From Trichodelitschia bisporula (taxonomy: Eukaryota): a stretch of 64,000 bases of DNA. The translations under genes were made by a program, and so were the position numbers. Positions 12,044 to 64,000 of the stretch are shown here, piece after piece. The stretch lies in NCBI GenBank assembly GCA_010356995.1, contig ML996697.1:182153-246152 (forward strand), in the 5' to 3' direction. Numbering within the stretch: position 1 is the first letter of the stretch; each line of letters opens with the position of its first letter. The notes beneath the pieces are model-generated. The model worked only from the letters and a program-made list of their open reading frames with translations, was not told the DNA's origin and ran no database searches.

Positions 12044-12139
12044 TCCGGTATGGTCTATCGGCTAGGATCACCCGCTTTCATTCATGAAGCAGCTGTGTAC
12101 AGCACCGGGTAGGGCCGGGTTCGACTCCCGGTACCGGAA
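12044..12139 (+). tRNA. tRNA-Glu(TTC) with 24-nt intron (12081-12104)
   Basis: Acceptor stem TCCGGTA/TACCGGA, anticodon stem ACCCG/CGGGT, anticodon TTC at 12077-12079, intron after position 37, T-arm CCGGG-TTCGACT-CCCGG, downstream T-run. Confidence 0.95.
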
Positions 12140-12794
12140 CTTCTCTTTTGCACTTTGGTGTATATTTTTTTGCTCTGTTGTGCTGTCCGGCGCAATGGGA
12201 TTGTGGGAGGTGGGCTTAAGATGGAATGGAGGGGGCGTGAGAAAGCGCTGGAGGACGTTGAGAGCGCGGGGTATGGCAATCTACCACAGCTGAATTTTGT
12301 CATCGTCATCCGTGGTGTGGGGGATCGGCTCGTTAAGCGGCTCTTAGGGTCGGCCATCTACCGTATGTCGTCCAACGTCTGGTGATGTCGTTAACCAGGT
12401 GAGGGGAGGCAGATGACGATTCGGTGATCTTAACTGGCAAGCTAAAGCTTTAGCTGGTTTGCACCATCCACACTAGCTAAGAGAATGAGTAGCGAATATC
12501 AAGATCGTTTGCCGTTAGACTAGGCTTGAGCATGATAGTCGCCACTGGGATTGATATGCCTTTTGCAGACGGCTTGACAACAGTTTGCTCCTCACACACG
12601 AAGCGCAGCAATTGTGAGCTAGAGACCAACGAAGAGTCAATCGTGCCAGGCGTGTCACTGCCCAAACTCATGAAATTTCAGCCCATATCTAAGCCTACTC
12701 CATTTATCTCACGATGACAGAGATCCATAGAAAAGACCTAGCCCGCAGCAAACGCTAAACCGACATCAGACACCCCCAGAAGGGTTCGCAACTA

Positions 12795-28030: not shown

Positions 28031-28148
28031 ACATACGGCCACAGGTTGTAGAAAGCACCAGTCCCCGTCTGCTCACTGAAGTTAAGCTGCAAACCGGTCG
28101 ATTAGTAGTTGCGTGGGTGACCAGCAGCGAATCCCGACTGCTGTATGT
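28031..28148 (+). rRNA. Dispersed 5S rRNA gene
   Basis: 118 nt, ACATACGGCCACAGG...GTTAAGC...TTAGTAGTTGCGTGGGTGACCAGCAGCGAATCCCGACTGCTGTATGT; terminal helix ACATAC/GTATGT, followed by a T-run Pol III terminator. Confidence 0.93.
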
Positions 28149-28659
28149 TTTTCATCTTTTTACCTGAATGCTGTGCCATCATTATCTTTTTGCTCGGCGG
28201 TCATGCTGTTTTATCGTCATGCCAGGGACACAGGTTTGAACCACCATGTTGCCTACGTGATAGCAACTGCCTCATGCTACTCCTTTTCCGAGTGTCAAAG
28301 GCCTGCGGGCATGGCGGATGTAAATTAGATCGTCATGGAATGTTGCAGCCAGGCCCAAGAAGAATTTCTTTTTGGATTTACGTGGCTCCCCTCGCCTCCG
28401 CCGGTGCCAGGAGAAGGGGGTATCGATGGGTCACTCCCCTCCATAGGTTAGGAAGCCCCACCGACCCATTACTCCTGCAGAGGCTCCATAGGAAGTCGCG
28501 TCTATTGCTCAGGCAGCAGCTATCCCTAGAGATGGCATTCACCCCCCAGGTGTAAACACCAGGGAGAGGATATGTAGCCACCTCCCGCTCAATTAGCCTG
28601 GCTCATTCATCCGCTTTCTCCATCTCGCACTAGGGTTTCGTACTTCGTGCCAATAGCCG

Positions 28660-34900: not shown

Positions 34901-35243
34901 AGTAGTGTTCCCCTCCCCTACCAGACCCCCTGCACACCTAAACTTCGCCGCTGGCCTAGACTTTTCTTATTTTCGAGCGCGATCTAGCTAGTGGTATCGG
35001 CACTTTCCTATATCACCCCATCTTGTCCACCATGCCTTTCCCATGCCCGCCCTTCCACGTCATGACGCGATTTGCTTGCCCGTCATCATCCCCGCCTGCG
35101 TCTAGAATCAAGTTTAGACTCATCGTATGTCGAGACGTTTGAGGCTTCCCTTTCCTACCTCTGATCAGCTACGCCAGATCGTCGGCAGATCGGCACATAA
35201 TCCTTCTGGAAGGAAAAAACAAAGAAAATCATACCCTTGATTG

Positions 35244-45870: not shown

Positions 45871-48140
45871 CTACACTAATGCGATTAGACGCCGGCATGG
45901 GCTTGCTGCTAGCCATGCCTTCTCGTTGATCTCGCCAATATTGACCCTTCTGCATGTCCCATCGCTATGCCGCTCGAGCTGCAGTGCCAAAACCATTGGC
46001 ATAATGTCAGGGATCTCATCAATAGCACGTCTGGCGATGAGGGCAAACTCATGTGTGCCATTATCGTATCCGCCGGATTCCCAGTGCTCATCTAGCATTT
46101 GATTGGTATTTCCAATGACATTACCCGTGGCATCGAGGATGTCCGGATTTCCCTTGATGGTGGAGTACAAAGTGCTTGGATTCCCTCCACGCAAAGTGAA
46201 CGTGGCAGTGTCCGTCCAGAAGAAAATAACATATTCATCGGGATATTCGAAGAGGGACCCAGCGGCAAGACTTGGCAGTTGGGAAACGACGTTGTCCCAG
46301 GTCACCGGATCGTCGATCACGGACTCTTGGGAGACTGGCTCGATGGTGAGCGGATCGCTCTTGTGGACATGGCATCTGATGTTCGGGTTTTCGGTCTCCA
46401 ACCTCTCCTTGCGCACACCGACGTTCACCTCTCCAATCCACCCCATCCACGACCAGCTTGGGAATGTGACGCGCCCGTGCTTTGAAGTCACAGGCAAGGT
46501 CGATAGGACTGCTCGCCGCTTCTGCCCGGTGAAGGTATCCCATGCCATGCCAATGTCGAACCGGCTCCGCGGGATTCCCCAGTGAAATTGCTCGCCCGAG
46601 ATGCGCTGAAAGGCTCTGGTGATGCCGGTGAACGCATCACTGATATCACCCTCGAAGGAAAATTGCCGTTGGGTAAATCGTCTCACCAAAATCTGATACT
46701 GGCTCCAGGTCCTCTCGGATGAGTCGCCGACCTCGCCAAAGTTTAGAAACGTGCGTTGTACGGTCAATTCGTTACCAAGGCTGGAGAAGGAGCGGAACCT
46801 GGGCTCCGAAAGCTCAAAATAGGATTCCTCGCAAAATGCCGCTTCCATGCATCCCCAGTATATTTGCTCAGACGTGAAGACCAGTGCACGGCGTGAGAGG
46901 GCTCGCTCCTGCATTGTCCACCCCCGTCGACCCCACATTGTTGTATCGGTGTAGTGACCGCCGCTGAGGATGTTGGAATATATGGTCGTCATGAAGGATA
47001 ACCCATCTCTGAAGCCTGGCTCACTGCTGCCTGGCTCGATCACCACTATTTCTTGCTGCAAGAAGAAGCGAGTGTTCGGTCGGAGACCTGGTAATCCGGC
47101 GGAAGCGTCGGGGCCCGCGGCGGCCACGATTGTCAAGTATGCGGCGCCGTATATGGCGTGCATGTTGGAGATTTGCACGACTTTGTCGGCGTCGCTATCC
47201 TGAAGGATGCAAAGAGCGTCAACCCAAATATATTCAATGCCGAGTTTCAGGGCCAATTCCCGGGCGTCTGAGATGGTCAAAGCAACCGACTCGTCCTGGA
47301 GGGCTCCTGGCTTTTGAAGCTCTTCGATGTTACCGCTTGTTGCCTTCAACTTTTGCGATGCGCCCCATACGTAGCTGAGGGCTGCATATTTGACCGTGTC
47401 TAGCTTCACGGAGTCCATCGTCACGACGCATTGACGGTTGGTGTCAATCATGCGCACGCTGGATACCCTACACTGTATCAGTCACAAGCTCTGACATATC
47501 GTCAAACTTACAGAAACTGATCAGACTCTTCAGAATCTCGGCAGAGCTGGTGGCACTCTTCTGTATCGCAAATACGAATCCACTCTCGAATCCAATCCAG
47601 GTTGGCAACAAGCGGTCTCCGCCGACCGCCAAAGACCATTTGATCAACATCTGGTCTTGGGTCCCGAAATGACCCGTCTACCTGGACGGAAAGGGCTCCA
47701 ACGTTGCAAAGTTGGAAACAGTCGTCGAAGTACCCCTCTGGATACCAGGAATAGTCTTCGCCATCGACTGTCAGTGTCACCTGAAGTCGCCGGACAGCTA
47801 AGTTTTCGTGTTTGGCGAAGGAGAACCTCCCATATGCATGGCGATAGAACGTTACGTGGAATTCCTTTCCGTCCAATGATGTGCCTTTCTGCAAGTCGGT
47901 GACACCGCGTCTTTCAATCATCTGCCAAATCAAAGCACATAGGCGACATCTGTGCGTCCGGTCTTTCAACTCGGACAGCAGCCCGACTATACGGCTTGGA
48001 GTGTACATCGACTTAAACGGCGGCAGGTCGTCTCGAGAATTTGCATCTTCCAGGACAGCAGAGAGATCTGAAAGAGTTGGGTATCGGAAGGCCTGGAATG
48101 GGATTTGCTGGCAGATGGTGCACAAGGACGGCGAAGCCAT
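45871..48140 (-). CDS. HET-domain (heterokaryon incompatibility, PF06985-type) protein, 741 aa
   Basis: Exons 48140-47512 and 47467-45871; YAALSYVWG, TISDA, YIWVDALCILQD, MHAIYGAAYLTIVAA, RRGWTMQE...LSRR, FPSWSWMGW; N-terminal CxxC pairs. Confidence 0.93.
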
Positions 48141-48731: not shown

Positions 48732-50845
48732 CTACTGCTTGGTAGGAACCCGGCGCAGCACAAAAACGGCAACCTCGATGCCATCCGTTGGATCGGGACC
48801 CTCGTAGTTGCGCTTGTTCAAATCTTCGATGAACTGAACCGTCAGCGCCTCAGCAGAGACATGCTCCTGCTGGCGCTCTGGCAACCTGACCTCGCGGAAA
48901 TTATCGACCGAGTTCCGCCACTGGTGCGAGTGGACGGGACTCGGCCCGGGCCGCACAGTGGTCAAGCGCGTTGTGAGGCCTTTGCGGAAAGCGGCGGTGA
49001 TATTGGCCCGTTCCTGGTGCGACCACCACTGTATCCAGTCCCTTTTTTGCAGGCGTACCACATCAGTGTCCTCATAGACAACTTCCAAGACACCCCCACC
49101 CGCAGTTTGCAGCTCGCGCGCAAGGTCGGCGATGCCTGTTGCCATTTGCGCGAACTCGGGCATGGGAATCAAAACGTTCATTCCGTTGTCAATGGCTGCG
49201 GCCGTGTCGCTCGGAAGCGTGTGCGTGGTAACGAGCTGGCGGAGCAGGGGCTCGATAAGGGGCTTCAAGTAAGATTTGGTAAAGGTTGTGGCTCCAGTTT
49301 TCGTCGGGTACATGAAAACGAGAACTCCATCGTCCGTTAACTCACAGATACGGTCCTTCAAAAACGAGTTCTTCGAGTCGACACTGAATAGATCCGCAAA
49401 CTCCGTTTCGGAAGATGGGGTAATGTAGCGCTCAATGACGGTCCAGTTCATGGAGCCGGGCGCGACGGCTGGTCGAGCTCTGAAACCGTAGGGAAACGGA
49501 TTGTGGATATGTTCAGGAAGTGAAAGCGGAGCCAGCATGTTGTAAATGCCTACAGTTTGGTTCAGTGAATCCGGCCCATCAATGGCTCCCATCCCCGAAT
49601 GCAAAAACCAAGGACGCGGAGGTTCAGCCGTGAGGCCTTGACCGGACATTCCATGGCAGACATTAACGGCTCGCGGCCTTTTTGACGCCGCGATATGGTG
49701 CAGGAGGTCGACGCACGCTGGAGGCGTGCAATCTTGGCCCGACAGGCCTGGCAAGCTGTGTGAAAAGACTGCAAGAACTGCTCTCTGCTGTTGCGAAAGG
49801 TCGTACACGCCGGCGTTCACTGTAGTGGAGTCAAGGGACTGCTCGAAGGCACGTACGGGAGGATATTAGGGGTCTTACGCATCGCATTTTCAGCTACTTT
49901 AAGCCAAGAGGCATCGCCGGAGCCTGGACTACGATCCGATTGACGGCCTTTAACAAGCCGGGGAGGTGTAGCGTCAGGGGACATGGCGCGATTGAGATGT
50001 GAAGTAGGAGTGGAGCTGCGGTCGCGAGTGGTATCTGAAGCGGGAGTGGGGGTGAGGTTGCGGTCTGGAGGTGGCGATGTTGGGATTTGGACGGGTACCA
50101 CAGCTTTCGGAACAGATGGCGATGTGCCCCAGTTGAGCTCCCTATCGTCGGATGGAGGTGTTTGCGGACCTTGAAGGCGCTGAAGTGAGCGTTCGATTAG
50201 ATATGCAGGCGCAAGGCTTTGCTGCGATGAAAAACAATCGTCCCCCAGTTCGTCGTCAAGGTGGCCACGGAAACGTGATGTTCGAGCAGAGAAAGCCGCG
50301 CCCCGCGAGTCGGCAGCGATATAATGGGTAGGCAATGGGGCCCAACGAGTAAAGCCGGGACGGCGATGGGCTGTCGCGTTCACAGGTATCGCCGAGCGTA
50401 CCGCCGAGTGTGCCGCCGAGTGCGTAGTCGTCACCTCACGATGCTTGGAAACCGAGCTGACAAAATGGGCTTGCGCTTCAAGCGGGTCCAAGTAAATTCT
50501 GTCTTTTTCGCAACCAGAGAAGATTGGTGTCGTTGTCTCTGCTGTTGCCCAAGTGGATTCGCGCAAGGACTCGTTGACGTCGGTCTCGCGAACTCTGCAA
50601 CCTCTGGACACTGAGACTTCCAAGGGTGCAGCTTCATTTTCCGAGGCTGTAGAGGTGCTTGACTCTGGCTGGCTTGCTTCCGTTAATGCCCCTCCCGCAG
50701 ACTCTACAGAGAGGAGTTTCGTCGTTTGAAAATTCTGGAGAACTGGCAGATTGTGGCAGGCGGGAGCGAAGGATTTTTGCATCACTGGGCTGCTGTTGAG
50801 ATCTGCATAAGGCGTACGGCTACCTTGAGCATTGGCTGTACGCAC
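48732..50845 (-). CDS. Hypothetical fungal protein (Ser/Pro-rich N-terminal half, globular C-terminal half); 5' exons unresolved
   Basis: Two ORFs joined in frame by intron 49878-49820 (GTAAGA...CTACAG); C-terminal half IERYITPSS, FMYPTKTG, IEVAVFVLRR; an acceptor CAG just upstream of 50845 implies further upstream exon(s). Confidence 0.75.
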
Positions 50846-53800
50846 CGCTGATCATAGAGAGGAGCTGGTAAGTGACCTGACGTTCGACGGGTGATATGCT
50901 GTGAGCTGCTAACTTCATATAGCGAGATGTCCACGGGCGAAAATGGCCCACTTGTGAGCAACAGGTGAACGTTTAATGACCACTGGGCTTAGGAGCCATA
51001 AGAGGGGAAGAGTAGATGGCCAAATGGTCTAGGCCTTTGAGGACGAGGAGGGGACGGGCTTTTGTCGGCCTAGAACGCCGTCCAAGCAACGTTAAGTTTG
51101 ATGAAAAGAGGTAGGGTAAAGGAGGTGGGGAGCGACTTTGACTTGAGCAGGAGAATCAGAAACGGTTGTGACTGTTACAACTCTTTAGTAGAGTCGGCCA
51201 CCGCAGTCGCTCCAGCAAAGAAGTGAGAAGCGAGTGGAAGGATCGCAGTCCAGAGTCCAGTGTACCCTCTTCAGTTCTCACATGAGCCTGGGCCGGACCG
51301 GCCGAGAGTCTGCACAGCTGCTTGGGTTCAGAGGAGGGGAGGGAAGGGGAGGGGGAGGGGAGACGAGGGGTCGGCAAGATGGAGATGCAGCGAGCGGAAG
51401 CTCCCTAAGAAGAGCCTTCCAACGGCCGGACACGATGGACATGAGGGATGAGTGGACGGGTTCGAGGGAAGAGACTGCAAGCAGAGGTTTTTGGAAGCCC
51501 AGAGATTCGTTCTGTGTGCCAGTCCATGCCTCACCAGCGGTCCCGAACGTGAGTATTCCCTGCAGTCCCAGGCAACCAGCAGGTTGCAACTGCAGTGCAG
51601 AAGCAATGGATAAGCAGCAACAGCAATACTTAAAGGGACGGACGCAGTAGAGAAAGCGGGTAGTTTGAAGGATAGCAAACAATAAAAGTGAGTAATGGAG
51701 AAAACGACGTGCGGAGTGGGAACGAGAGCCGACGAATTAGGATGGATGTGCAAAACGATGCCCATGAGGGGACAATGTTACCATCAAAGGTCAGAGCAGT
51801 GGACGAGAGGCCAGAGTAGTCGAGAGGGGCCGCCCGTCGGTAGCAGTTAGTGGGCCCTACTACAGTGAGGGTCCATGCCCGCTAATACCACAGTAGGGTA
51901 CCGTAGACAACATAGGCACTCGCAACCCTTCATATATCTCCGATGGAAGGTAGCAAAGGGCTGGATACCGCAAGTGAAGCTCTCCCACACCATCCCCTCC
52001 TCCACCACTCCCCTTCATCATTCACACCATCACCACCGCCGACGAAGTACTCATCCACTAGCAAGCCTGCAGTGTGGGTGAGTGAGCTGTGGCTGCACGG
52101 CCGGCTGCCACGGCTACCAACCTGCTGCCGCCGCATAAGGCCTCGACCGCGATGGCCCAAACCTCTCCACATTCCTGCAGACAGCAAGCCAACCCCACGT
52201 CGGTCAGTGGAGAGGCGTGGCTTGGGACAACCTTTGAACCACACCGCGTCCAGCCGGCCTCTAGGATTGGTTCGGCTGCTTGTGCGCGGCCGCTGCCGTT
52301 GTCGCCCTGTCGGACCTTGGGGACGATTTTGTGTTGAGATTTCCGATGACCATAGTAGTAAAACGCCATCATCTTATTTTTGGAATGATATGGTTCGATG
52401 CTGTTTCCGCTTGAACGTCTAGCCGAATAGGAAGCCTTGGACCCACGAAAAGCCACAGCCGCCACGCGCCATTCGAGGCGGGGGAAACACAAACGAATTA
52501 GCTGGCCGTAATACGTAGTAGTTTTCTTTTGAGGGGGGAGGGCATGATCGAAAATCGAGATGCTCAGCACAATCATTATTTTGGTGATCGTCGTCCAAGA
52601 AAACTGGTGCTCTTTGGCCCGAGTCGAGGTTGCAGGGTGGGCCGTTCCTAGCGGGTTAGACCCGACGTGGGTGCAAAAAGCCATCGAATGATATTGGAAT
52701 GTTCACCCGCCTTCATACCCATCCTGAGGAACAACAAGTAGTTCCAACCGAGTAAAAAAATGCCAAAAAGTCTCCACATGGAGTTCCTGGACTTCTCGAT
52801 GGTTGCAAGGGCCTGGATTGTCCATATGGGGAATGGAGTACCGGTACGGCTACCGAATATGAAATGAGGCGCCAGCACCGTGAATACCATAGCACGGGTA
52901 ACGGAAGTCCGAGCTCCCGAGGAAATACCGTATTTCTGAATCGATTTTCTCCGATAGGATAAACGCCCACCTGTTCGGCTAGGCAAAAGAGTTCTCGACT
53001 CCCCATCGGAATGTAAGCCGCCCATGCCCTCCTCCAAGAACGGGTGAATACGTACCTCGCCCACACACCACCACGATACTACGTGGAAGGAGACAGAAGT
53101 GAAATGAAAGGGGTTAACTGCTCTCATCCCTCGCGCGCGCACAGTTGTGCAGCTCGTGTTCTGCTTCTGCTGGGTCGGCAGGTCGCATAACGTATCCCAC
53201 TCTTGTGACATGTCCGTGGCCGGGTCGGAAGCGGTCCAGACTCTCAAAGCCTGGGGACGCCAGTCAAGATGCAGAGGGCCAGAGGGACAGAGGGACAGCT
53301 GGGGATCCAGACGCTCGTTCTGTAAGACCGCCACTTTACTCTTCCTCTCCAACAGATCTAACCACTGGCGTAACCGTTAAGGGACCCTTGCAAAGCATTG
53401 CTCATCGTGGTGTGGTTGTGCGTCGGAAAAGCGGGCTTATCTCTTCGCCTGTGGCATGGGCGTATGCTTGCCAACGCCTTCCGTGTCGATGGGATGTCAG
53501 AACTTCCATATTGAACCATGCCAAAGTGAAAAGGCTTGCAAACTAATGCCATGATCGCGTTTAGCTCCACGATCAAGATGTGTGGGGAGACGTCGGGAGT
53601 TTTCTGTCATTCCGACCCCCCTTGCTGACCTTGATTCCAACGCGCGCGCTCACCGCGACGCCACGACGCCACGGCAAGCGGACTTCAATTACCGATGGTA
53701 ACCTCGCTGGAGATCAGAGGGGAATGCGCTCGACGTCAGCTATCGAGAAGTTGGGGGAGTCACGCGAGTTGACTCGCTTCCGTAAACATCCGAATCACGA

Positions 53801-55152
53801 CATCATGTACCGTTCTTCAGCAGCTTACATCTCATAGTTGCATCCAAAAGGCGCACTACTTTCTCGGCGACTCCTCTCCATCTGACTAACAAGATGTCTC
53901 TTGTCGGGCTTTTCAGACTATCGCAACACTCCACACCCACGACACCCTCTCCCGTTCGCCGAGACGTGCGTGCAGCAGCGTTTCCATGAGCCCGAGGGCC
54001 ACCTGGAAAGGTCATGGCCGCCTCGTGTGAGGGTCTTTGCGGACCAGGACGGCCACGAGTTTTTCGGGTGGCCCTTGACCCACTGAGCCCAAGCCCATGG
54101 CACTGCAGGTGATGCTGCATTGCTGCACCTCGAGACACAGCTCCTTCGCTCGATCTGTCGTGCTGCGTCCATACCCTCAATTTTCGCCTCAAACTGACCA
54201 ACTATTGAAGCGATTCAGGCAGGGCGTGTCGAGCGGGCCACGGAGCTGGATCCGCATATCTTGGAAGGTGCGTCTGCGTCCAAAACGCAACCGGACCGGA
54301 TCGGATTCGGATGGCAATGCGAAGTTGAAGGTAAGCCGAACAGGCTGACCCGAATCTCAGCTTCGACTATTCTCAAATAGTATAAGGTTGCTATCTGCAG
54401 CATTGCTGCCGATATACGCTGCTTCTAAGCTCATGAGTATCTGGGTGAAAGAAGCCTTTTCGGTCCCGATCTCCAGATCACCTCCATGTCTGGTGAGCTA
54501 CTGTTTACATAGCTTGCCACTCTTGCCCATCCGGAGGCCAAATGAGTGGATTGAATCCACAGAGAGACGCTTTATTGGCTTGGTGATGAATGAAAGAGGA
54601 TCTTTGCGAATGACTCGAACTGAATAGATCTATCGCGTCGACCATCGATGAGCCAAACGATCGACTCATCCAACCCCGGATTGCCGTTGTGCTTATGACT
54701 CCAAGCCGTCTATCGTCACCGGTCAGCTCAATGCGTATTGGAGATGAGGATTTCTTCCCCACAACTTGCGCTGGTCTGTCATGCCATTCACCGCTCAGAT
54801 AAGCCCCCACATGGAAGGTTAGGCCTACCAGCCACTTGTGGCTGCCTGCCTGGCGTCGATATGCGGAGTACGTACGGTACATGCTATTTTAGCTCTCGGC
54901 AGCGTCAAGAAATCCTCTCATACTACAGTACCTTCCTGTTCTGCTCGATACGCGGTGATTGCTTCAGGGTTACCGCTGCTGGAGGAATGACTGGACTAGC
55001 AAACTCATCGACTCATTCAGACCACAAAGGACCCGACTTCATCGCCCCGTATCCCTATCCTAACACTCGCACTTGCTTATTTGTCTTTAGACGCTATCTG
55101 GGTCCATATCAAACATTGCACGTCGACTACACTCCGTGGAATAGCTGACAAC

Positions 55153-58100
55153 ATGGCAGCTCAGGAGATCCAAGATTTGCTCATCATGGTGGATGCCACC
55201 GCCTCCATGTCGAATTATCTCAGAGCGCTGCAAAAGTCGCTTCCTCAAATCCTCTCCATATCTGCACTGACTGGCTGCTTCTCTCGCATTGGAGTGCTCG
55301 CGTACCGGGATTACTGCGACGATAACCTGCTCGAGTGGTCCGGATGGCTCAACTGTGATGCAGCGCCGGGGACTGCGCAGCCGAACCTCATTGCATTTGC
55401 CAATAACCTGTATGCGGACGGTGGAGGCGACGCGCCAGAAGCCACGAAAACGGGGCTCGCCCGGGCGTACCAGGAGATGCGGACGGAAGCATTGACGATC
55501 CTTCTATTCTACACCGATGCCCCTCCTCATGTCCCGGCCAATAGTGGCCCGTACTCTAACCATGCCTCCGAGCTGCGCGCACTCAATACAGAGGGAAGCT
55601 TTGGAGGTACTGGCCACCTCTTTGCGGACTGGGTATCGGCATGTCGAACTCTTCGGTATGGTGAGAAGAGGGCGAAGGTATTTTGCACCCTCGCGCCGTG
55701 GATGGGCGGCAGCGACTGGGGCTACTACGCGTTTCTCTCCACCATCACCGGCGGGGCATGCTTCTTCCTCAAAAACGAAAACCCGGTCACCATTTCGGAG
55801 GTTACTATCGGCGTGCTTCTCGCCTGGATGGGTGTCGAAAAGGCTGGGGCGGAAGAGGTCAAACTCTCTGCGGATATGTCTCGATATATTTCCGTCGATG
55901 ATATCAAGAATATCCAAAACGAGGAGGACAGCACCGCAAGCAAGTTCTTTGTGGCCAAGAGCTACTCAAGGTCCAGCCAGTCAGTTGGAAGCAACACCAC
56001 AAGGATACAGCTAGCCGGAGATGTAATGAAGAAACACCTGCCGAAGAAGTCGTCGCCGCTCCAGGACTTTGCAAAGAGGTATACCACTGATGAGGCTTAC
56101 AAGAAGATTGTGGCCACTCAGCTCAGGAAGATTATTGAGCATGACGTTCTCGCAATCTCGCTGAATCCCGTCTTTGGCAGCCTCTGGCGTGCCGTGTCCA
56201 ATGACCGCACGAATCCTGACCGGGACGAGCTCATTTCGGCCTTTGGCCTCGCTGTGGAGCGTATTGATCAGGGTGAAGAGAAGCAGAGGATGAAGACCTG
56301 GCTTGAGCAGTCTTATGACTATACTGCGGAAGTTTTGGAACTCATCGAATTGGTCCCGGTCGACCAACGCTTCCCATGCGTTTTCTTGGATCCAACACTT
56401 GATTTCGCTGCTGCGCCTTCCAAGGATGAAGCGGACGAGGAAGAAAACGACGTCCCCATCACCAAGTTCCGGCGCGATGAGCTTTTGGAGATTGGCCGCT
56501 CTTGCGATTACCGAATTCTCCGCAGGCTCGGCAAGATCCTCACCCAGCTCACTTTCGTGAATTCCGCGGACCAAATGCCGGCTCACATTGCGAGCATGGA
56601 CGACAAGGACGTGCCCAAGATTCCGCTGGCTCTTGCCCACTCAGATTACAAGCGGAAGTTCTGGGGTATCCTTTTGCACGTTGTGGTTCCGGGAACCATG
56701 CTGGGCCCTCGTCCGGCGACGTTGTTGGCGGCGCTGAGCCTTCATCTGGGGATCCGGCCCCTCGAATCCGCCGCAGTCCAGCAAATGCTCGCGTGGCGGG
56801 ATAAGTGGAATACTCTCGAGATCCCGGAAACTTGGAATACTAGCTGCCTCAGCCTACTTTTGGATGCAGACCTTGCGTACACTAAACTGCGGGACGAGGC
56901 CCGTCCTGTTGCGGAGGGAAACCCGAAAAGCCTCCTAAAGCCGAGTGACCGCAAGTTGTTCGAAATCTTGGTCTCCTACAAGCTTCTTGAGATGAACATG
57001 CTCACAACATTGTCGGCTAAAGTCGGTTGGACCCCGGACAAGACGCCGATGGCGATCGGCCCGCTCGTTATCTGCAAACGCTGCAAACTTCCCCGCTCAG
57101 TCACCATCATGGGGCTCAATCAGGCCTGTGGACTTTGCCTCGTCAAGGACTGGGGTTCCGAAGAAGTCCGCCAAAAGTCGCTCGCTCGGCGCGTCAGCAA
57201 AGATGATACTGAAGCATCCACGGCGATATGGGTGGAATGCGCCGATCGAACCTGCCGAGGCCAGTATGTGGTTTACAATACGGAAGCCTTGAATGTCAGG
57301 GCCAAATGCCACTACTGCAGGAACCAGCAGAAGGCGCCGTTGCTGGAATGCAAGAAGTGCCTGAATCACATGATCTATCCCGACAAATACCGTCCGGCCG
57401 GTCTCGATGTCTCGAAGTTCCACTGCGTGGCCTGCACAGTCGGGTCCCCTACCTCCATCATCGACGTGGAGACCACGGCTGACGAACTCACCAAAGAAAA
57501 TGGTACAGCCTGGCTCCTCATGAACCAAAACCAAAAGATCGCAGAGCCCTTCTCCAAGCGCACCCTCTTCCATGTCATCTCCACCGCCGGCACCGCCGAT
57601 TTCGCCACTCTCGTCTCCCTCTTCCCCCCTACTTCAACCCCACTTACCCTCAACCGCAAGCCCATCCACAACACCCCCGCCCTGATCGCCGAACTAGAAC
57701 CCTGGATCACCCGCCGCCGCACCCAACGCTCCACCTGCAGCCTCTGCTTCACCTCCCACCGGCCCGCCGATCTGAACGCCGCCTGCAGCCGCCGCGGCTG
57801 CTCCCAGCCCATCTGCCGCACCTGCCTGTCCTCCTGGTACGGCCTCAACAAACCCGGCAGCATCATCAACCCGTCCGCGCTGACCTGTCCCTTCTGTCGC
57901 CGGCACCCCGCGCCCAAGACGCTGACCGCGTACGGCATGGGCATCCACACGGTGGGTGATCTGCGGACTGCGCTCGGGGAGCGTGGCGAATGGATCCATG
58001 CCTGGTGCGCGCAGTGCGGGTTTGCGCGGAGGTTTGCCGAGCGTGCGTGTGCACGGGGTGCGCCGCCTGAGGTGCGGGGTTGGGTGTGCGAGGGGTGTGT

Positions 58101-58452
58101 CGAGGAGAATGCGCGGGTGGCGAGGGAGGAAGCGGAGCGGCTGGAGGTGCTGGCGCTAGCAGCGCGAGATGATGCTGAGGCTGCGAGGAGGGCGGAGGGG
58201 GCGCGGAGGGCGATGGATAGGGCGCTTGCAAAGGTGCCGGTTTTGGAGAGGAAGAAGTGTCCCGAATGTGGGATTCAGACGGAGAAGGCGGGTGGCTGTC
58301 ATCATATGGAGTGTTTTTGTGGGACACATTGGTGCTGGTTCTGTGGGGATAAGCAAGACTCGGCTACGATCTACGAGCACATGGACCGGAAGCACGGGGG
58401 TATGTTTGCAGGAGAGGCTGGATATGGGAGTGATGACGATGATGATTATTAG
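55153..58452 (+). CDS. Intronless 1099-aa vWA + multiple zinc finger + RING + RBR-type RING2 (Rcat) protein, putative E3 ubiquitin ligase
   Basis: MIDAS DATASM, GGGDAPEA, YTDAPPH; CxxC clusters; RING CSLC..C..C..CRTC..CPFC; C-terminal CPECGIQTEKAGGCHHMECFCGTHWCWFC. Confidence 0.88.
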   Translation: MAAQEIQDLLIMVDATASMSNYLRALQKSLPQILSISALTGCFSRIGVLAYRDYCDDNLLEWSGWLNCDAAPGTAQPNLIAFANNLYADGGGDAPEATKTGLARAYQEMRTEALTILLFYTDAPPHVPANSGPYSNHASELRALNTEGSFGGTGHLFADWVSACRTLRYGEKRAKVFCTLAPWMGGSDWGYYAFLSTITGGACFFLKNENPVTISEVTIGVLLAWMGVEKAGAEEVKLSADMSRYISVDDIKNIQNEEDSTASKFFVAKSYSRSSQSVGSNTTRIQLAGDVMKKHLPKKSSPLQDFAKRYTTDEAYKKIVATQLRKIIEHDVLAISLNPVFGSLWRAVSNDRTNPDRDELISAFGLAVERIDQGEEKQRMKTWLEQSYDYTAEVLELIELVPVDQRFPCVFLDPTLDFAAAPSKDEADEEENDVPITKFRRDELLEIGRSCDYRILRRLGKILTQLTFVNSADQMPAHIASMDDKDVPKIPLALAHSDYKRKFWGILLHVVVPGTMLGPRPATLLAALSLHLGIRPLESAAVQQMLAWRDKWNTLEIPETWNTSCLSLLLDADLAYTKLRDEARPVAEGNPKSLLKPSDRKLFEILVSYKLLEMNMLTTLSAKVGWTPDKTPMAIGPLVICKRCKLPRSVTIMGLNQACGLCLVKDWGSEEVRQKSLARRVSKDDTEASTAIWVECADRTCRGQYVVYNTEALNVRAKCHYCRNQQKAPLLECKKCLNHMIYPDKYRPAGLDVSKFHCVACTVGSPTSIIDVETTADELTKENGTAWLLMNQNQKIAEPFSKRTLFHVISTAGTADFATLVSLFPPTSTPLTLNRKPIHNTPALIAELEPWITRRRTQRSTCSLCFTSHRPADLNAACSRRGCSQPICRTCLSSWYGLNKPGSIINPSALTCPFCRRHPAPKTLTAYGMGIHTVGDLRTALGERGEWIHAWCAQCGFARRFAERACARGAPPEVRGWVCEGCVEENARVAREEAERLEVLALAARDDAEAARRAEGARRAMDRALAKVPVLERKKCPECGIQTEKAGGCHHMECFCGTHWCWFCGDKQDSATIYEHMDRKHGGMFAGEAGYGSDDDDDY

Positions 58453-58646
58453 GTCCCCGGGCCGGAAGTAAGTAGGTCTCTCCTGCGGACATGGTTCTCA
58501 TGAATAGTTATGAATCTTCTTGGTATACATGTTACATGCCTTCGTGACGGAGAGGCAGCAAGATGCTCATTTCTCCCTGGTTACTCGCGCCTAATGAGTT
58601 TCGCTCTAGAGGGTATCTTAACACACGCCCAATGCCAACAACATGA

Positions 58647-60278
58647 CTACGCCCAAACCCCCAGTCCCCAACTTCCCCTCTCACCTGCTGCCCCCGACAC
58701 GCCTCTCACTCCAGGTCCCATACTCTGTCGCTGAGGAACAACGCTCACATCCTTCTTCGCAGCCGACGCACCAGCCAGTCCGTGCTGCAGAAAGCGCTCC
58801 CTCTCAATCTCCACAACGCCTCGCACACGGTTATTGACTACCAAGCTGGCGCCCGCCCACGCGCCCAACGACTCGACCGCGCGGATCACACCCTCGACTG
58901 GAGGGGGCGAGTGCTTCATGTGCAGCTGCGAAATCTTGCGCATAATAGGATCGAATTCTCGATCCATGTTACTTTCAGAGTTTGAGAGAGTACCATCATC
59001 GTCCGGGATGGCGGAATAGCTGATTGGAGCGGATTTGGCTGTCGAGGGGTGGGAGAGACTGCGGGGATCTTTCTTAGTGGAACCATAGTTACGAACCGGG
59101 GTCCAGCCTCGCTTGTCGATGAGTGCCTCGAGGTCGGCGAGCAGGCGCCGCTTGATACCCGGAAGTTTGGAGACGCCACCGGTGATGATGATGCGGGACA
59201 TGCAGACGCGGCGGACATCAACCGGAAGGTGGAGGAGAGTGTCATACGTGAGTAGGGGGAGCGGCAGATTGTGGTCGTCCAGGTCATGCTCTGCAGCTTC
59301 TGGAGCAAAGAGAGCCAATTCCGCGGGATCGGAGAGACGATCGAATGATACATCGAGGGTATTTGGGTAGTGTGAAGTCGGGAAGGGTATTTTTATCTCT
59401 TTGCCATGGCCTTCTGGTCCGGCACCACAACGGCACCAGCCTATGCGCGTCATAACCTCTTCAATCTCTTCGAATGTAAATTCATCCTCTGATACGTCCC
59501 CCGCAGCGGCTGTGACATTGCGCAGCTCCTGATGTAGCAGTGTTCCAAACTCTTCACTAAGCGCTTTTCCAGCTCTCACAGAATGACGTTGGTGAACCTC
59601 GCGGTACTCATAAACGGCAGTTGCAGTGGTCTCTTCCCAGCCGATATCGATGACCAGTGCAGAACGTAGTCCAGCGGCGGTGGTGGCCATAACGGCTGTG
59701 GGTAAAAGCGTGATGGTTTGCGCCTGGACTCCATTGAATACGCCTCCAAGTAAGACAGAAAGTAACGGCTTAGGGAGTGAAGACGGCACAACCAGGGCAA
59801 CTCTTCTCGTCCGATTGTCCAGCAGGAAGTACTTGAGCTCCGCTTCCCGAACCAGTCGCTCAACCTTGTCCTCCACCAGCCCCAGGTCCAGGTCTCTGAT
59901 GTCCATACGCCAAAGCTCGTGGTCCCATCCCCAGGTTTCGCCGCTTCCCAATGGCCGGTGAGGGGGCTCGTAGTCGATGGCCCATCGCCTGTAGTCTCCG
60001 ACCCGACGCTCTAAGTCCGGGCTGTATTTCGTGGAGCATCGCGGAGAGCTCTCGCCTGCAAAGCCAGCCTGCATGCAGCGTGAGCCAAGCTCGAAAACCA
60101 AGAGATTTTCTTCCTCGCTACGGTAGCCGCCAGCTGGTGAGCCGTATAGTCCAGATATGGATCGGCTGAGAGGGGTATGTGGGGAAGGAAGCGAGCCCAA
60201 TTGTTGTCCTGCGGCGGTAGAAGGGCGTAAACGACTGAGAGTCGACTTGCGAACATCGTAGCTCGGAGTACTGGCCAT
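58647..60278 (-). CDS. ARP10: Actin-related dynactin subunit (Arp10/Arp11, Neurospora RO7-like)
   Basis: Actin-fold motifs FELGSRCMQAGFAGESSPR, ALVIDIGWEET, LPVDVRRVCMSRIIITGGVS, SLGAWAGASL. Confidence 0.88.
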   Translation of the reverse strand: MASTPSYDVRKSTLSRLRPSTAAGQQLGSLPSPHTPLSRSISGLYGSPAGGYRSEEENLLVFELGSRCMQAGFAGESSPRCSTKYSPDLERRVGDYRRWAIDYEPPHRPLGSGETWGWDHELWRMDIRDLDLGLVEDKVERLVREAELKYFLLDNRTRRVALVVPSSLPKPLLSVLLGGVFNGVQAQTITLLPTAVMATTAAGLRSALVIDIGWEETTATAVYEYREVHQRHSVRAGKALSEEFGTLLHQELRNVTAAAGDVSEDEFTFEEIEEVMTRIGWCRCGAGPEGHGKEIKIPFPTSHYPNTLDVSFDRLSDPAELALFAPEAAEHDLDDHNLPLPLLTYDTLLHLPVDVRRVCMSRIIITGGVSKLPGIKRRLLADLEALIDKRGWTPVRNYGSTKKDPRSLSHPSTAKSAPISYSAIPDDDGTLSNSESNMDREFDPIMRKISQLHMKHSPPPVEGVIRAVESLGAWAGASLVVNNRVRGVVEIERERFLQHGLAGASAAKKDVSVVPQRQSMGPGVRGVSGAAGERGSWGLGVWA

Positions 60279-60440
60279 CGTTTACCCCCCGCTGGCGGTA
60301 GTGGTGGTGAAGTTTGGTGTTAGTGAGGAGCGGCAGCGAGGCCGCGAGGTGTCGTTGTGCAGGGGCCAAGAGCATGCGCAGGGATGTAGCATGAGTTCGG
60401 ACCAAAAAATCGGCGAACTCTTGGCGTCGAAGCTTTGATC

Positions 60441-60474
60441 CTAAAAATTTGTTTCCCCCAATTCTCCTCATCGC
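60441..60474 (+). promoter_or_regulatory. RRPE-like and PAC ribosome-biogenesis motifs in the shared ARP10/NOP58 promoter
   Basis: TAAAAATTT at 60442-60450 and CTCATCGC (reverse complement GCGATGAG) at 60467-60474, about 85-115 bp upstream of the NOP58 ATG. Confidence 0.6.
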
Positions 60475-60557
60475 ACAACTCGGATCAGCGTGGACAATCC
60501 TCACCGCCATCAACGCAATCAACGTCCAAGGGAGCTTTTGCAGCAGAATCTCTCGAA

Positions 60558-62297
60558 ATGGCGCCCCTTTTCCTGCTCACCGAGACCGCTGCAGGTTATG
60601 CCCTTTTCAAATCTACCGATAAAAAGCTCCTTGAGCGCGCCGATCTTGCAGACGTCGCTCAGGATCCTGTTCAGACTGGAAATGTGTACGTGAACGGCTT
60701 ACGACAAGTCAATACCTAGACTAATTGGTCTTCAAACAGGCTTAAGCTCAAAGATTTCAAGAAGTTCGACACCGCGGCTATCGCGCTGAGCGAAGCTGCT
60801 GCAATTGGCGAAGGCAAAGTGACGCCGTTCTTGGCCTCGTTCCTGAATTCTCTCAAGAGCGAGAAGAAGGCTTCGCTGGCCGTTGCTGATGCGAGGCTCG
60901 GCAAATCCATCAATGCGCTCTCGGAGTTCTCCATCAAGCCTATCGTCGACGCCGCAACTGCCGAACTACACCGCGCCGTGCGGCAGCACATGTCCGAGCT
61001 GCTCCCGCAGCTGACCCCCCAAGACATCTCCACCATGTCCCTTGGTCTGTCGCATTCGCTCTCGCGCCACAAGCTTAAGTTCTCGGCCGATAAGGTCGAT
61101 ACCATGATCATCCAGGCCATTTCATCCCTAGACGACCTCGATAAAGAACTTAATACGTACGCTATGCGCGTCAAGGAGTGGTACGGATGGCATTTCCCGG
61201 AGCTTGCGCGCATCATCAACGACAACATCGCATATGCGAAACTCGTACTCACTGTCGGCATGCGCCAGAACTTTTCGTCTTCGGATATGTCGGACATCCT
61301 CCCCGAAGAGATTGAGGGTGCCGTCAAGAGCGCCGCCGAAGTGTCCATGGGCACGGAAATCACCGACATTGATCTGGTTAACATCCAGGCCCTCGCCGAA
61401 CAGGTCATTGGCTTGAACGAGCTCCGCCAGGATCTGTCGAGCTACCTTACCTCGCGCATGCAAGCTATTGCGCCCAACCTCACCGCACTCGTTGGAGAGC
61501 TTGTTGGTGCTCGGCTCATCGCTCACTCTGGTAGCCTTATGAGCCTCGCCAAGAGCCCCGCCAGCACGATCCAGATTCTAGGTGCCGAGAAGGCGCTGTT
61601 CCGCGCTCTCAAGACGAAACACGACACGCCCAAATACGGTCTCATCTATCATGCCTCGTTGATCGGGCAAGCGACGGGCAAGAACAAGGGTAAGATCGCT
61701 CGCGTGCTTGCTGCGAAGGCTGCCCTCGGCGTTCGTGTGGATTCACTCGCCGGCTGGGGGGCGGATCAGGAGAACGCCAACAAAGAGGCGACCGAGGAGG
61801 AGCGCTCCGCTATGGGCGTTCAATCCAGGATTTACGTTGAGAACAAGCTACGCAAGCTAGAAGGCCGTCCCATCAACACCAAGGGTGCCCTCAACGCCAA
61901 TCTTCAACCCGTTCAGCCCGGCAAGTGGTCAGTCAAGGAGGCTCGCAAGTACAACAAGGATGCCGATGGTCTGGCCGGTGATGAACCTGCTGCTGCCCTT
62001 GCAGACCTCTCCATGACCGATGCGGCGCAGGCGGGTGCCGAGGAATCTTCTGATGAGGAATCCGAGGACGAGGAGGAGAAGCCCACTCCCAAGGCCAAGA
62101 ACGGCGAGATCTCTGAGAAGGAGCAGAGGGCGATGCGCAAGGCTGCTAAGAAGGCCGAGAAGGCAGCGAAGAAGGCTGCTAAGGAGGCAAAGAAGGCCGC
62201 TAAGGAGGCAAAGAAGGTGGGCGCCGGTGACAAGCGCAAGCGTGATGAGGATGCCACGACCCCAGAGAAGAAGAAGAAGAAGAAGAGCAAAGCGTGA
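60558..62297 (+). CDS. NOP58: Nucleolar protein 58 (box C/D snoRNP)
   Basis: Exons 60558-60685 and 60740-62297; [67 protein letters not shown], Lys-rich tail. Confidence 0.96.
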
Positions 62298-62963
62298 GCT
62301 TGCATCGCACTTGAGGGGTTCTATGGCGTTCGGGCATGGGCTTGTACACTGGGATTGTGGTATTACTGGCGTGAAGGCGTGACACTGGATGGTGGCCTTG
62401 GTGTTTTCCAGCCAAGGGACAAGACTTGTCCATAGGAGTGGTCATAAATTTAGTAACTTCAGTATCCAAACGCATGTTCACTGTGCCTCGTTTAATGTGT
62501 TTCGATTGCATAGCTTCCGAAGGGCACTGATTCCCTTAGATGGGCGTGTTCGCGGGCAGCCTGTCACCCGCAGTGTACCAAGAATAATGGCCCATGGTTG
62601 GCGTAGGGACCAATAGGAGCGCTTCTCTCCATCACCTCAACACAGAATTCTTTCGAAGATTGACTCCGCGACGCCTTTTTCGATATCTTTGCTTTCCACA
62701 TCGCTGACCGAACGGAAAGATGCTTACAGTAGTATGTGAATACTGAACCTTTCGTATTTATAGTCTGACTAGCTCGTAAAAGATTTTAATCATTGGCCCA
62801 TGAACTCAAGCTCGGCCGAACACCACTTGAAAGTCCAAGTGTGATATTACGTTGTATATCACGGTCCCATTATCGCGTTGTGGGAGTGTCTCGAAGGACA
62901 GCATCAACCCGCCAAAGACTTCCTACCTTTTCGTTTCAAGCCTCAACTAATCCGCCACCAACC

Positions 62964-63550
62964 ATGCTGGCACGCATCACCTACCACTCCTCCATCTCAT
63001 CTCTAACGCATCCAGATCCTCGACCCGGGCACCCAGCCCCTCAGCAACGCCGAAGTCCTCGCCCACATCCAGTCTCTGGATGCAAAGTACGCGCGTGATG
63101 GCCGGACCGAGACGATTCCAGACAACCTACGCAAAGTGATGCGTGACGTAAGTACCTTACCTACCCCCCTCCCCCTCACCTAACCCGCAACCGCTCCCTA
63201 ACGCGCCCCAGGTCAAGTCCATCCTCACGATCCCAACGCAGCCCACTTGCCCGGTGGACACGGCGCCGCTGGTGACGGAGGCACAGAAGGCCGCTGCGCC
63301 GACATTCCGCTCTGAGCGCGTGTTCGCCGCGCTGGCGAGGCGCCTCCGCGCGAAGCCGTTCTCGCTCCTGCCTGCAGAGATCTTGCAGGTGTTCAATCAT
63401 GTGCCGCGGTCGCGGACGGAGTTGACGATGATTGTGCAGGAGGGAGAGGAGCGGTTTGCGGAGGAGGTTTTGGATCAGTGTCTCGATGTCATCAGGGAGA
63501 TTATGGTTGAGGGGAGGGGGCTGGATGTCGTTAATGGCAATGGAGTATAG
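62964..63550 (+). CDS. RPC17: RNA polymerase III subunit RPC17/C17 (Rpb4 family)
   Basis: Exons 62964-62969, 63016-63147, 63212-63550; ML-ILDPGTQPLSNAEVLAHI...LLPAEILQVFNHVP...IVQEGEERF; first intron is GC-AG. Confidence 0.75.
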
Positions 63551-64000
63551 GGTTAGGTGCTGGTAGCGGGTTGGACTTGTCGACGTCCTACTGCTACGTA
63601 CGTACGGATGTACTGACGATGGATAATGCCTATGTGTCCACAATGCCATTTCCCTAAAGCCATGTCTCCTCAGAGCAGCAAAAACCCCCGGTCTTAGATC
63701 TCAGTGCATAAACACAACCACACGAGCAACCTTAATCCCACCGATCACCAAACCCATCATTCCCTCTCCCCATCGGAGACGGCCCCAGCCCCGAACAATC
63801 GTAACCTTATAACCCGCAGCACCTCCGTAAAAAGTCAAAAAGCGCCGCAGTCCGGGATCCTGGATCTCAATCCATCGCCAATACCGCCTGTCGCCCAGCG
63901 CAACCCAGTCTCAGCTGCTCCCCGCGACTCAGTGGCTCAAGGAGGCAACCAAACCTTCTAGCGCGCTTCTCGAATCTCCTCCCGCCACGATGTAAGCACA

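Follow-up and report, generated by a model that had tools for sequence, protein, structure and literature searches.

The question raised by this locus is whether one long open reading frame (ORF) of the fungus Trichodelitschia bisporula encodes a RING-between-RING (RBR) ubiquitin ligase (E3) with accessory domains of its own, and how its lack of coding introns and its unusual architecture are to be explained. The ORF lies in a stretch of 64,000 nucleotides of contig ML996697.1, which is called the window below. A sequence-only reading had described it as a candidate novel ubiquitin-ligase system, in which a von Willebrand factor A (vWA) domain recognises a target, plausibly in defence, and had raised the possibility of a horizontal or retro-origin. 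We consider it fairly probable that the gene is the intact T. bisporula member of an old, conserved and unstudied RBR subfamily, and that its product would act as a vWA-directed and probably gated ligase.

55153..58452, + strand: complete coding ORF of the vWA-RBR gene, 1099 residues plus stop (protein P0001; ORF list and translation)

The ORF forms one uninterrupted frame from ATG to stop. An in-frame stop codon is located just 5' of the ATG, with the stop-to-stop frame starting at position 55000, and the homologues in a 20-sequence alignment share the same initiator Met. The protein contains neither a membrane segment (maximum KD19 value of 1.49) nor an N-terminal signal sequence and is predicted to be soluble and intracellular. 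All motifs quoted in the sequence-only reading were found in the translation, namely DATASM (residues 14–19), GGGDAPEA (residues 90–97) and TDAPPH (residues 121–126), followed by three zinc modules of the CxxC type, a RING-like block, a Cys cluster, a charged stretch and the sequence GGCHHMEC, and the set as a whole appears to lie far beyond chance. The proposed domain order also held, consisting of a vWA domain with a metal-ion-dependent adhesion site (MIDAS), the zinc modules, an all-Cys RING1, a degenerate in-between-RING (IBR) domain, a charged helix and a RING2 with a Cys-x-His motif.

Conservation was assessed in the 20-sequence alignment of Pezizomycotina mentioned above (A1), an alignment of 65 sequences (A2) and 17-sequence sub-alignments of the window protein with 8 uninterrupted metagenomic fungal loci and 8 viral loci, which yielded a vWA profile (A6) and an RBR profile (A8). 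The Cys and His positions of the zinc modules and of the RBR region were invariant or nearly so in the 20- and 65-sequence alignments. The column-conservation profile of A2 divides the protein into the vWA domain (residues 1–225), a variable segment (226–300), a conserved middle region (301–625), the zinc modules (636–765), a segment of residues 766–857, RING1 (858–920), an IBR-like module (945–986), a variable insert (987–1030), the required-for-catalysis domain (Rcat, equivalent to RING2; 1034–1081) and an acidic tail. Outside the vWA and RBR regions the window protein had no Pfam match, and scanning it against NCBIfam gave 0 matches.

The RBR catalytic module

57724..57912, + strand: RING1, residues 858–920, eight invariant Cys (C4C4) from C862 to C915 (alignments, PDB profile)
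57985..58110, + strand: reduced IBR-like module, residues 945–986, five conserved Cys C952, C955, C966, C979 and C982 (alignments)
58111..58242, + strand: variable charged Ala/Arg/Glu linker helix, residues 987–1030 (gaps in A2, blocks in A1)
58252..58395, + strand: Rcat/RING2, residues 1034–1081, with C1036, C1039, C1049, H1051, C1054, C1056, C1061, C1064, H1076 and H1081 (Pfam, PDB, alignments)
58297..58299, + strand: TGT codon of the predicted catalytic Cys1049, which aligns with the Cys of GGC-x-H in the parkin Rcat

The class of the protein was assigned from its C-terminal part. Pfam family IBR_2 matched residues 1034–1065 with 28.9 bits, above its gathering cut-off of 27, and a PDB search with the single sequence returned the Rcat domains of parkin, ARIH2, ARIH1, HOIL-1 and RNF216 (best E 1e-6). 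With the family profile A8, the matches to the Rcat domains of parkin and ARIH1 reached E values of 5.8e-12 and 8.7e-10, respectively. The complete RBR of ARIH1 was collinear with this profile (positions 4–180 to ARIH1 183–379; E 6.7e-6), the RBRs of CUL9 (2069–2277) and RNF216 (7–201) were both matched at E 1.3e-3, and the IBR-like segment aligned with the parkin IBR (profile 94–186 to parkin 222–318; E 1e-10 for IBR and Rcat together). The predicted domains thus follow the RING1-IBR-Rcat order and spacing of RBR ligases, and the Rcat appears to be of the RBR type, with a Cys, a His two residues on and two putative zinc sites. Judged by the Rcat and the collinear RBR match, the protein is assigned to the RBR class and would share its ligase chemistry.

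RING1 begins with C-x2-C, ends with C-P-F-C and has a conserved L864 (L/I864), W895 and F914, which we take to be positions of the E2-contact type by analogy with c-Cbl-type RINGs (E2, ubiquitin-conjugating enzyme). Its PDB matches were the RING domains of TRIM32 (E 2.4e-5 with the A8 profile) and FANCL (E 1.9e-4), and Pfam family FANCL_C matched residues 861–917 of the window protein at E 0.023 (15.4 bits). The charged insert behind the IBR-like module is variable, with 76% gaps at residues 1001–1025 in A2, and was present in 13 of the 20 A1 sequences, as read by eye.

The conservation of the catalytic residues, which the sequence-only reading had named as a check, was determined in a census of 231 fetched homologues of at least 900 residues. 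The strict Rcat pattern was found in 212 of these, and 13 of the 19 misses keep the GC-x-H core (CPNxxC variants missed by the pattern, or a cut gene model), which is therefore retained in 225/231 homologues and in 17/17 fungal and viral sequences of A8. C1036, C1039, C1049, H1051, C1054, C1056, C1061, C1064 and H1076 are all invariant in 20/20 and 17/17 sequences, and the catalytic Cys previously placed at position 58297 was located correctly. These numbers also bear on the idea of a catalytically dead scaffold, in which an RBR-like zinc-finger array would bind ubiquitin or an E2 without forming a thioester. The degenerate IBR and the atypical ligand spacing of RING1 would suit such a protein, but constraint on the Cys-x-His core and on every zinc ligand of Rcat is as strong as an active site would lead one to expect, and we regard a dead scaffold as very improbable.

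Accessory regions upstream of the RBR

55153..55827, + strand: vWA domain, residues 1–225, MIDAS-like D14-x-T16-x-S18, D93, E96, T100, D122 and H126 (Pfam, alignments, PDB profile)
55828..56052, + strand: poorly conserved linker, residues 226–300 (lowest column conservation, 14–23% gaps in A2)
56053..57027, + strand: strongly conserved middle region, residues 301–625, assumed to be helical (conservation profile, invariant columns)
57058..57447, + strand: three Cys4 zinc-ribbon-like modules, residues 636–765 (Cys conservation)

The N-terminal domain was recognised as a vWA domain through its orthologues and its profile. Pfam family VWA_4 scored above its cut-off in the homologues P0155 (38.2 bits), P0178 (29.2 bits) and P0012 (28.0 bits) and in the viral copy L028 (34.8 bits), and the A6 profile retrieved the beta-I domains of integrins beta-3, -8 and -6 as top PDB matches over the whole domain, with a best E of 3.9e-4 for beta-3. 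In these alignments, the integrin motifs DLSYSM, DAPEG and TDAKTH stand opposite DATASM, GDAPEA and TDAPPH, with Thr (T16) at the position of the first DxSxS Ser. Of the 65 A2 sequences, 63 retain all six key MIDAS-like residues (D14, T16, S18, D93, E96 and D122), and D93, E96, D122 and H126 are present in 65/65 and invariant in the 17-sequence vWA alignment. The residue set of a vWA domain is thus present as a predicted metal site, and the domain would carry a beta-integrin-like MIDAS region capable of binding a metal ion.

The middle region behind the linker contains invariant columns at, among others, N338, W345, R346, H509, R520, W552 and E559. No significant relative of residues 301–625 was found in Pfam or PDB searches, and an Atlas search with residues 290–635 gave no usable match; the only hint was a noise-level match to VMAP-M8 (vWA-MoxR-associated) at E 0.12 in 1 of the 17 sequences. 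The zinc modules are formed by the Cys pairs C641/C644 and C659/C662, C696/C701 and C719/C722, and C733/C736 and C758/C761. All 12 Cys are invariant in 17/17 sequences; in the 65 sequences, each is either invariant or conserved to at least 90%. Neither the modules nor residues 766–857 had a significant relative in Pfam or PDB: the best sub-threshold match of the modules was Zn_ribbon_12 in 5 of the 17 sequences (E 0.033 or weaker), and the PDB matches of the middle region and zinc modules all had E values >0.06.

Gene model, distribution and origin

58147..58278, + strand: stretch of 132 nt (in-frame GT...AG) that the public gene model treats as an 'intron', read here as coding for residues 999–1042 (comparison with P0002, transcript contigs)
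53630..55152, + strand: apparent 5' leader of considerable length, containing 15 upstream ATGs (X2 contig; no long ORF on the + strand)
54328–54383 (±3 nt), + strand: apparent 5'-leader intron of 56 nt (GT..AG), about 770 nt upstream of the ATG (joint in an X2 contig)

The best database match of the ORF is a hypothetical protein of 1055 residues from T. bisporula itself, a member of the Dothideomycetes (P0002). It is identical to the translated ORF except for the absent residues 999–1042 (44 residues). These take in a portion of the linker helix together with C1036-P-x-C1039. The latter provides the first zinc pair of Rcat and is invariant in 20/20 (A1) and 17/17 (A8) aligned homologues. The annotated 'intron' of 132 nt starts with the donor GTGCTG, compared to lengths of 53–64 nt for the RNA-supported introns of the window and the donors GTGCGT, GTACGT and GTAAGT where the joint could be placed exactly. 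We aligned the contigs of two public runs, X1 and X2, which derive from one sample of one study and are presumed to be RNA, to positions 50000–64000. Because they skip short introns in the neighbouring genes (50792/50846, 53001/53055, 60685/60740 and 63147/63212), these contigs behave like spliced RNA. X1 covers 54384–60361 and runs across the ORF without a gap, and X2 covers 53630–54327 joined to 54384–57672, plus 57759–60290; both retain 58147–58278 without a gap. Since the contigs keep this stretch, its removal would cost the invariant CPxC motif, and its length and donor are unlike those of the window's introns, we take the public model to be mis-spliced, likely by an annotation error, and the uninterrupted ORF to be the real product. 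Judging from the spliced-looking contigs, the vWA-RBR gene appears to be transcribed.

The X2 contig also extends the gene upstream by a leader of at least 1.4 kb. Because the contigs show an intron in this leader, the mRNA is probably not intronless, and the description of the gene as single-exon applies to its coding region but not to the mRNA. The intron-rich neighbourhood set against it was overstated as well: neighbouring genes do carry introns of 53–64 nt, but the adjacent gene for an actin-related protein consists of a single ORF of 543 residues. The leader is called apparent, as one contig does not prove that leader and ORF belong to a single transcript. A long leader with upstream ATGs may mean translational control, or else a separate upstream non-coding transcript that was merged with the gene in the assembly.

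Homologues of the protein are widespread. A database search yielded 479 proteins with E ≤0.001 among 8000 scored candidates, and the 120 matches listed, apart from the species' own protein, showed 49–57% identity over 92–100% of the length. The named species among them belong to the Leotiomycetes, Dothideomycetes, Eurotiomycetes and Lecanoromycetes, and each of the 39 species occurs once. An exhaustive search of representative sequences gave 2095 matches with E ≤1e-3, 340 of them with E ≤1e-30, and extended the family to the following groups:

Sordariomycetes: Trichoderma, Colletotrichum, Podospora, Verticillium
Basidiomycota: Auricularia, Serendipita
Chytridiomycota: Borealophlyctis
Blastocladiomycota: Paraphysoderma
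Oomycota: Aphanomyces, Saprolegnia (P0269 from Saprolegnia parasitica)
Bdelloid rotifers: Rotaria (P0237 and P0316 from Rotaria socialis), on contigs of up to 455 kb

The rotifer and oomycete members suggest an old horizontal spread beyond the fungi. There was no Saccharomycotina name among the matches listed, and no search was aimed at this group. The distribution comes close to that of a universal single-copy housekeeping gene, which the sequence-only reading had regarded as speaking against its proposal, yet the family is not universal. The automatic database names of its members include 'RBR-type E3 ubiquitin transferase', 'dihydroxyacid dehydratase', 'itt1' and 'ariadne-like ... R811'. 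As many members already bear the first of these names, calling the ligase novel needs some qualification. No study of a vWA+RBR family turned up in the literature searched, which did not extend to supplements and subscription journals. The family is real, widespread and uncharacterised, yet already visible in databases.

Following a suggestion of the sequence-only reading, we also looked for giant-virus copies by scanning IMG/VR. The Pezizomycotina alignment A1 revealed no relatives there, whereas A3, an alignment of early-diverging fungi, recovered 8 homologues of full length; with a further scan, the count reached 11 distinct giant-virus contigs (L024–L031 and L042–L044). The eight contigs examined are AT-rich (24–35% GC) with densely packed ORFs. 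On L026, the homologue is located between a poxvirus VLTF3-like gene (1835–2956) and a gene for a family B DNA polymerase (7587–8699), and other viral copies adjoin genes for topoisomerase IA, topoisomerase IB or a SNF2-RING protein. The viral proteins keep the Rcat core and DxTxS, and by pattern they show GGxDxxE in 5/8 and TDAPPH in 4/8 cases. A search for a homologue from a named giant virus gave 6 matches, none of them in a named virus, and a search for capsid genes of nucleocytoplasmic large DNA viruses over one viral fragment of 36 kb gave no match, which is uninformative at that size. Scanning prokaryote genomes with a single pattern derived from A3 revealed no full-length relative, only two bacterial IBR/Rcat proteins. 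One of these is encoded in Parendozoicomonas (L032:1627–3351) and contains an IBR only, the other in a metagenome-assembled genome of Dependentiae (L033:1603–3171) and combines ankyrin repeats with an IBR; both look like RBR-like proteins of host-associated bacteria outside the vWA family.

The trees argue for a native gene. In a tree of 45 rows, the Sordariomycetes (support 95), Eurotiomycetes (99) and Basidiomycota (98) are each monophyletic, and the window protein falls into the unresolved base of a group of Dothideo-, Leotio-, Eurotio- and Lecanoromycetes. In an IQ-TREE of 21 rows, it is the sister of the protein from the Dothideomycete Mytilinidion (Shimodaira–Hasegawa-like approximate likelihood ratio support of 93) within a Dikarya clade (support 100). 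The GC content at third codon positions is 0.695, and the relative synonymous codon usage correlates with that of the neighbouring genes at r = 0.76, which is inside the neighbours' own range. Among 14 near-full-length metagenomic loci, 9 consist of one uninterrupted ORF, whereas the other 5 represent two organisms and carry introns at differing positions. We weighed these data against the proposed recent acquisition or retro-copying of the gene, which would account for its single coding exon and might draw on the patchiness of the family at depth (fungi, oomycetes, a bdelloid rotifer and giant viruses), where transfers probably occurred somewhere in its history. Because the tree tracks taxonomy, with other Dothideomycetes as the nearest relatives, the composition and codon usage are native, and 9/14 loci are likewise uninterrupted, neither a recent transfer nor a retro-origin is supported; the leader intron in the transcript contigs and the equally undivided actin-related gene next door point in the same direction. 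We consider this origin hardly credible, and the gene is best read as vertically inherited in fungi.

A mixed clade of Venustampulla, Stictis, Agyrium, Venturia, Halenospora and Cudoniella (support 100) crosses class borders in the 45-row tree and hints at an old duplication or a transfer within the Pezizomycotina. The viral copies were placed in two or three spots on the trees. Because their monophyly was not rejected by the approximately unbiased test (p = 0.095), their apparent polyphyly is not established.

Proposed mechanism, related ligases and genomic context

RBR ligases use a two-step RING/HECT-hybrid mechanism (PMC8631298), and the same would be expected here. RING1 would recruit an E2 charged with ubiquitin. 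Helped by His1051, the ubiquitin would form a thioester with Cys1049 of Rcat, from which it would pass to the substrate. The metal-ion site of the vWA domain (D14, T16, S18, D93, E96 and D122) would bind a ligand or the substrate at an acidic residue via a divalent cation, and the vWA domain, acting with the middle region and the zinc modules, may set the specificity and probably gate the RBR in the manner of the accessory domains of other RBR ligases.

Several observations weigh against this reading. The RNA status of the two runs behind the transcript contigs is presumed, their single common sample narrows the basis further, and a minor isoform spliced at 58147–58278 may exist alongside the retained form, since the contig data are compatible with it. 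On the window protein itself, Pfam VWA_4 (residues 79–125) scored 22.1 bits, below the cut-off of 27, and the integrin beta-I match of the profile is modest at the E value given above. The ligand spacing of RING1 is unusual, C-x4-C-x4-C instead of the common C-x-H-x2-C, and with only 5 zinc ligands out of the normal 8, the IBR lacks the canonical C6HC pattern. Among the 231 homologues of the census, 5 lack the Rcat end (C-terminally truncated or divergent, which may reflect truncated models or real losses), and P0125 keeps the Cys but has an Ala in place of the catalytic-motif His. Finally, no substrate, E2 or phenotype was reported for the family in the literature searched.

58396..58449, + strand: acidic C-terminal tail ending ...SDDDDDY (homologue census)

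The tail, which had gone unmentioned in the sequence-only reading, is conserved in composition but not in sequence. At least 4 net acidic residues occur within the last 25 residues in 195 of the 212 homologues with the strict Rcat pattern, 159/212 end with D, Y, E or W, and an aromatic residue is found within the last three positions in 112/212; 6 of the 8 viral copies keep the acidic/aromatic tail. This opens a refinement of the vWA-directed reading, which would leave that reading in place: the acidic and often aromatic-ended tail may serve as a pseudo-ligand in the vWA metal site and keep Rcat off RING1, until it is displaced by a genuine acidic ligand, or by altered Mg or Ca, and the ligase is switched on. 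Besides its conserved composition, the position of the tail directly after Rcat would fit. MIDAS sites bind carboxylates, including the carboxylate at the C-terminal end of a chain in the complement C3b-factor B complex, and the RBR ligases studied are generally autoinhibited by accessory domains, both of which we count in favour. On the other hand, 17/212 homologues do without an acidic tail, whereas loss of the MIDAS is too rare to leave any co-variation of the two to measure, and acidic tails are common and may have other roles, such as solubility or binding of a basic partner. We consider self-gating by the tail possible but rather unlikely.

More speculative still is an extended version, which we regard as unlikely: a tail-plugged MIDAS of the integrin beta type would respond either to changed divalent cations or to an acidic ligand, for which a ubiquitin-like domain, as with Rea1, is one possibility; an integrin-style open/closed switch through the middle region would free Rcat, and giant viruses would have captured the ligase repeatedly to reprogram host proteostasis.

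Compared to ARIH1 (HHARI) and parkin, the protein of the vWA-directed reading shares the collinear RING1-IBR-Rcat arrangement, the GGC-x-H motif and the Rcat zinc ligands. In contrast, it is without an Ariadne domain, a UBA-like domain, a Ubl domain and RING0, and the chain ends about 45 residues past Rcat. Its RING1 is all-Cys with longer loops, its IBR keeps 5 of 8 ligands, and about 855 unrelated N-terminal residues (vWA domain, middle region and three zinc modules) take the place of the known regulatory domains. Because none of their accessory domains are present, the protein is not of the Ariadne, parkin, HOIP/HOIL or RNF216 type. Membership of the Ariadne subfamily was considered separately and ruled out, as the matches to ARIH1 and ARIH2 reach no further than Rcat and there is neither an Ariadne domain nor an N-terminal acidic or UBA-like region. 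The names 'ariadne-like' and 'itt1' are automatic, and the link to the 'putative ariadne-like RING finger protein' R811 of Mimivirus lies in the automatic name of one fungal homologue and in the full-length family members on metagenomic giant-virus contigs.

Other proteins combine some of the same elements. The p44 subunit of TFIIH contains a vWA domain, zinc fingers and a RING-like domain, but no IBR or Rcat. The likeness to p44/Ssl1 is therefore one of layout only, with an N-terminal vWA domain, then Cys4 zinc modules and a C-terminal RING-like domain; an Atlas feature search pointed to archaeal vWA/Ssl1 clusters with a low score of 0.75–0.76, and no significant sequence match to Ssl1 was obtained in Pfam or PDB searches. 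The RGLG proteins of plants carry a simple C-terminal RING instead of an RBR that has a catalytic Cys. The searches made revealed no relationship in sequence to these proteins, and the vWA domain was closest to integrin beta-I. Nevertheless, RGLG1–5 resemble our protein as E3s in which a MIDAS-bearing vWA domain serves, or here would serve, as the part that binds ligand or substrate; the vWA domain of the cytosolic RGLG1 is reported to be a MIDAS-bearing ligand-binding domain with open and closed states (PMC7155146). The likeness to integrin beta-I domains extends over two loops, one of the DxSxS type and one with D-x-x-E, and over the strand with TDAxxH, all of which align with beta-3. Our protein differs from integrins and Rea1 in the weakness of the match, in the Thr for the first Ser and in the fusion to an intracellular ligase, and it is without hybrid and PSI domains or an AAA+ motor. 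The intracellular, integrin-like MIDAS of Rea1 is reported to bind ubiquitin-like (UBL) domains (PMC6624252), which makes it a suggestive precedent for a MIDAS in an E3.

About 14 RBR ligases are present in humans and two in baker's yeast, and each member studied is controlled by its own accessory domains. A deeply conserved RBR subfamily with an unprecedented accessory set would thus be a new case for studies of RBR regulation. The family occurs across filamentous fungi, including genera with plant and animal pathogens, and in oomycetes, and its giant-virus copies provide an evolutionary handle on the exchange of ubiquitin machinery between viruses and hosts. A correction of the database entries may be worthwhile, because the public model cuts the catalytic domain and names such as 'dihydroxyacid dehydratase' and 'itt1' are misleading.

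The finding is neither a genome-specific oddity nor a multi-gene system. None of the window's neighbours was found beside the homologue in 23 metagenomic loci, and no neighbour was common between the loci, except for near-identical contigs and the related pairs L003/L004 and L010/L011. Because there is no conserved neighbour, we regard the gene as standing alone, and the term 'system' was not borne out.

45871–47481, - strand: HET-domain ORF, 536 residues from stop to stop, about 8 kb upstream of the ligase gene (Pfam E 3.6e-28)
58647–60278, - strand: gene for an actin-related protein, convergent, the single ORF described above, 194 nt past the ligase stop (Pfam Actin 1.1e-18)

The surroundings also bear on the proposed defence role, in which the vWA domain would recognise a non-self target and trigger ubiquitination. 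The full-length copies on 11 giant-virus contigs are compatible with a gene of virus-host conflict, and the nearby HET-domain gene and the noise-level VMAP-M8 match may be added in its favour. HET genes are numerous in such genomes, and their proximity therefore means little. A PADLOC search gave 0 families at E values up to 0.1; because its library was built for prokaryotic systems, this null result is weak evidence, but it is accompanied by the lack of a conserved partner gene or island. Furthermore, immune receptors are typically expanded and hypervariable, which we count against a defence role, whereas this family evolves conservatively, with 49–57% full-length identity across classes and named species occurring once each among the matches listed. 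The rest of the window consists of ordinary core genes, among them a Nop-domain gene and genes for a GH72 protein, a trehalase and a TRP-like channel. We thus did not adopt the defence role and consider it improbable.

One transcript contig spans both the ligase gene and the convergent actin-related gene, so that their 3' ends may overlap. Scanning 58400–58700 for bacterial promoters and terminators gave no match, which has no bearing on a fungal gene. Further features of the window are the following:

12044–12140, + strand: tRNA-Glu(TTC), 97 nt, probably intron-containing
28031–28149, + strand: dispersed 5S rRNA gene (86.9 bits)
35241–36671: SAM+HMG-box ORF

Beside the SAM+HMG-box ORF, the segment 36001–38000 shows a local GC peak of 0.619 together with a strong negative GC skew of -0.27.

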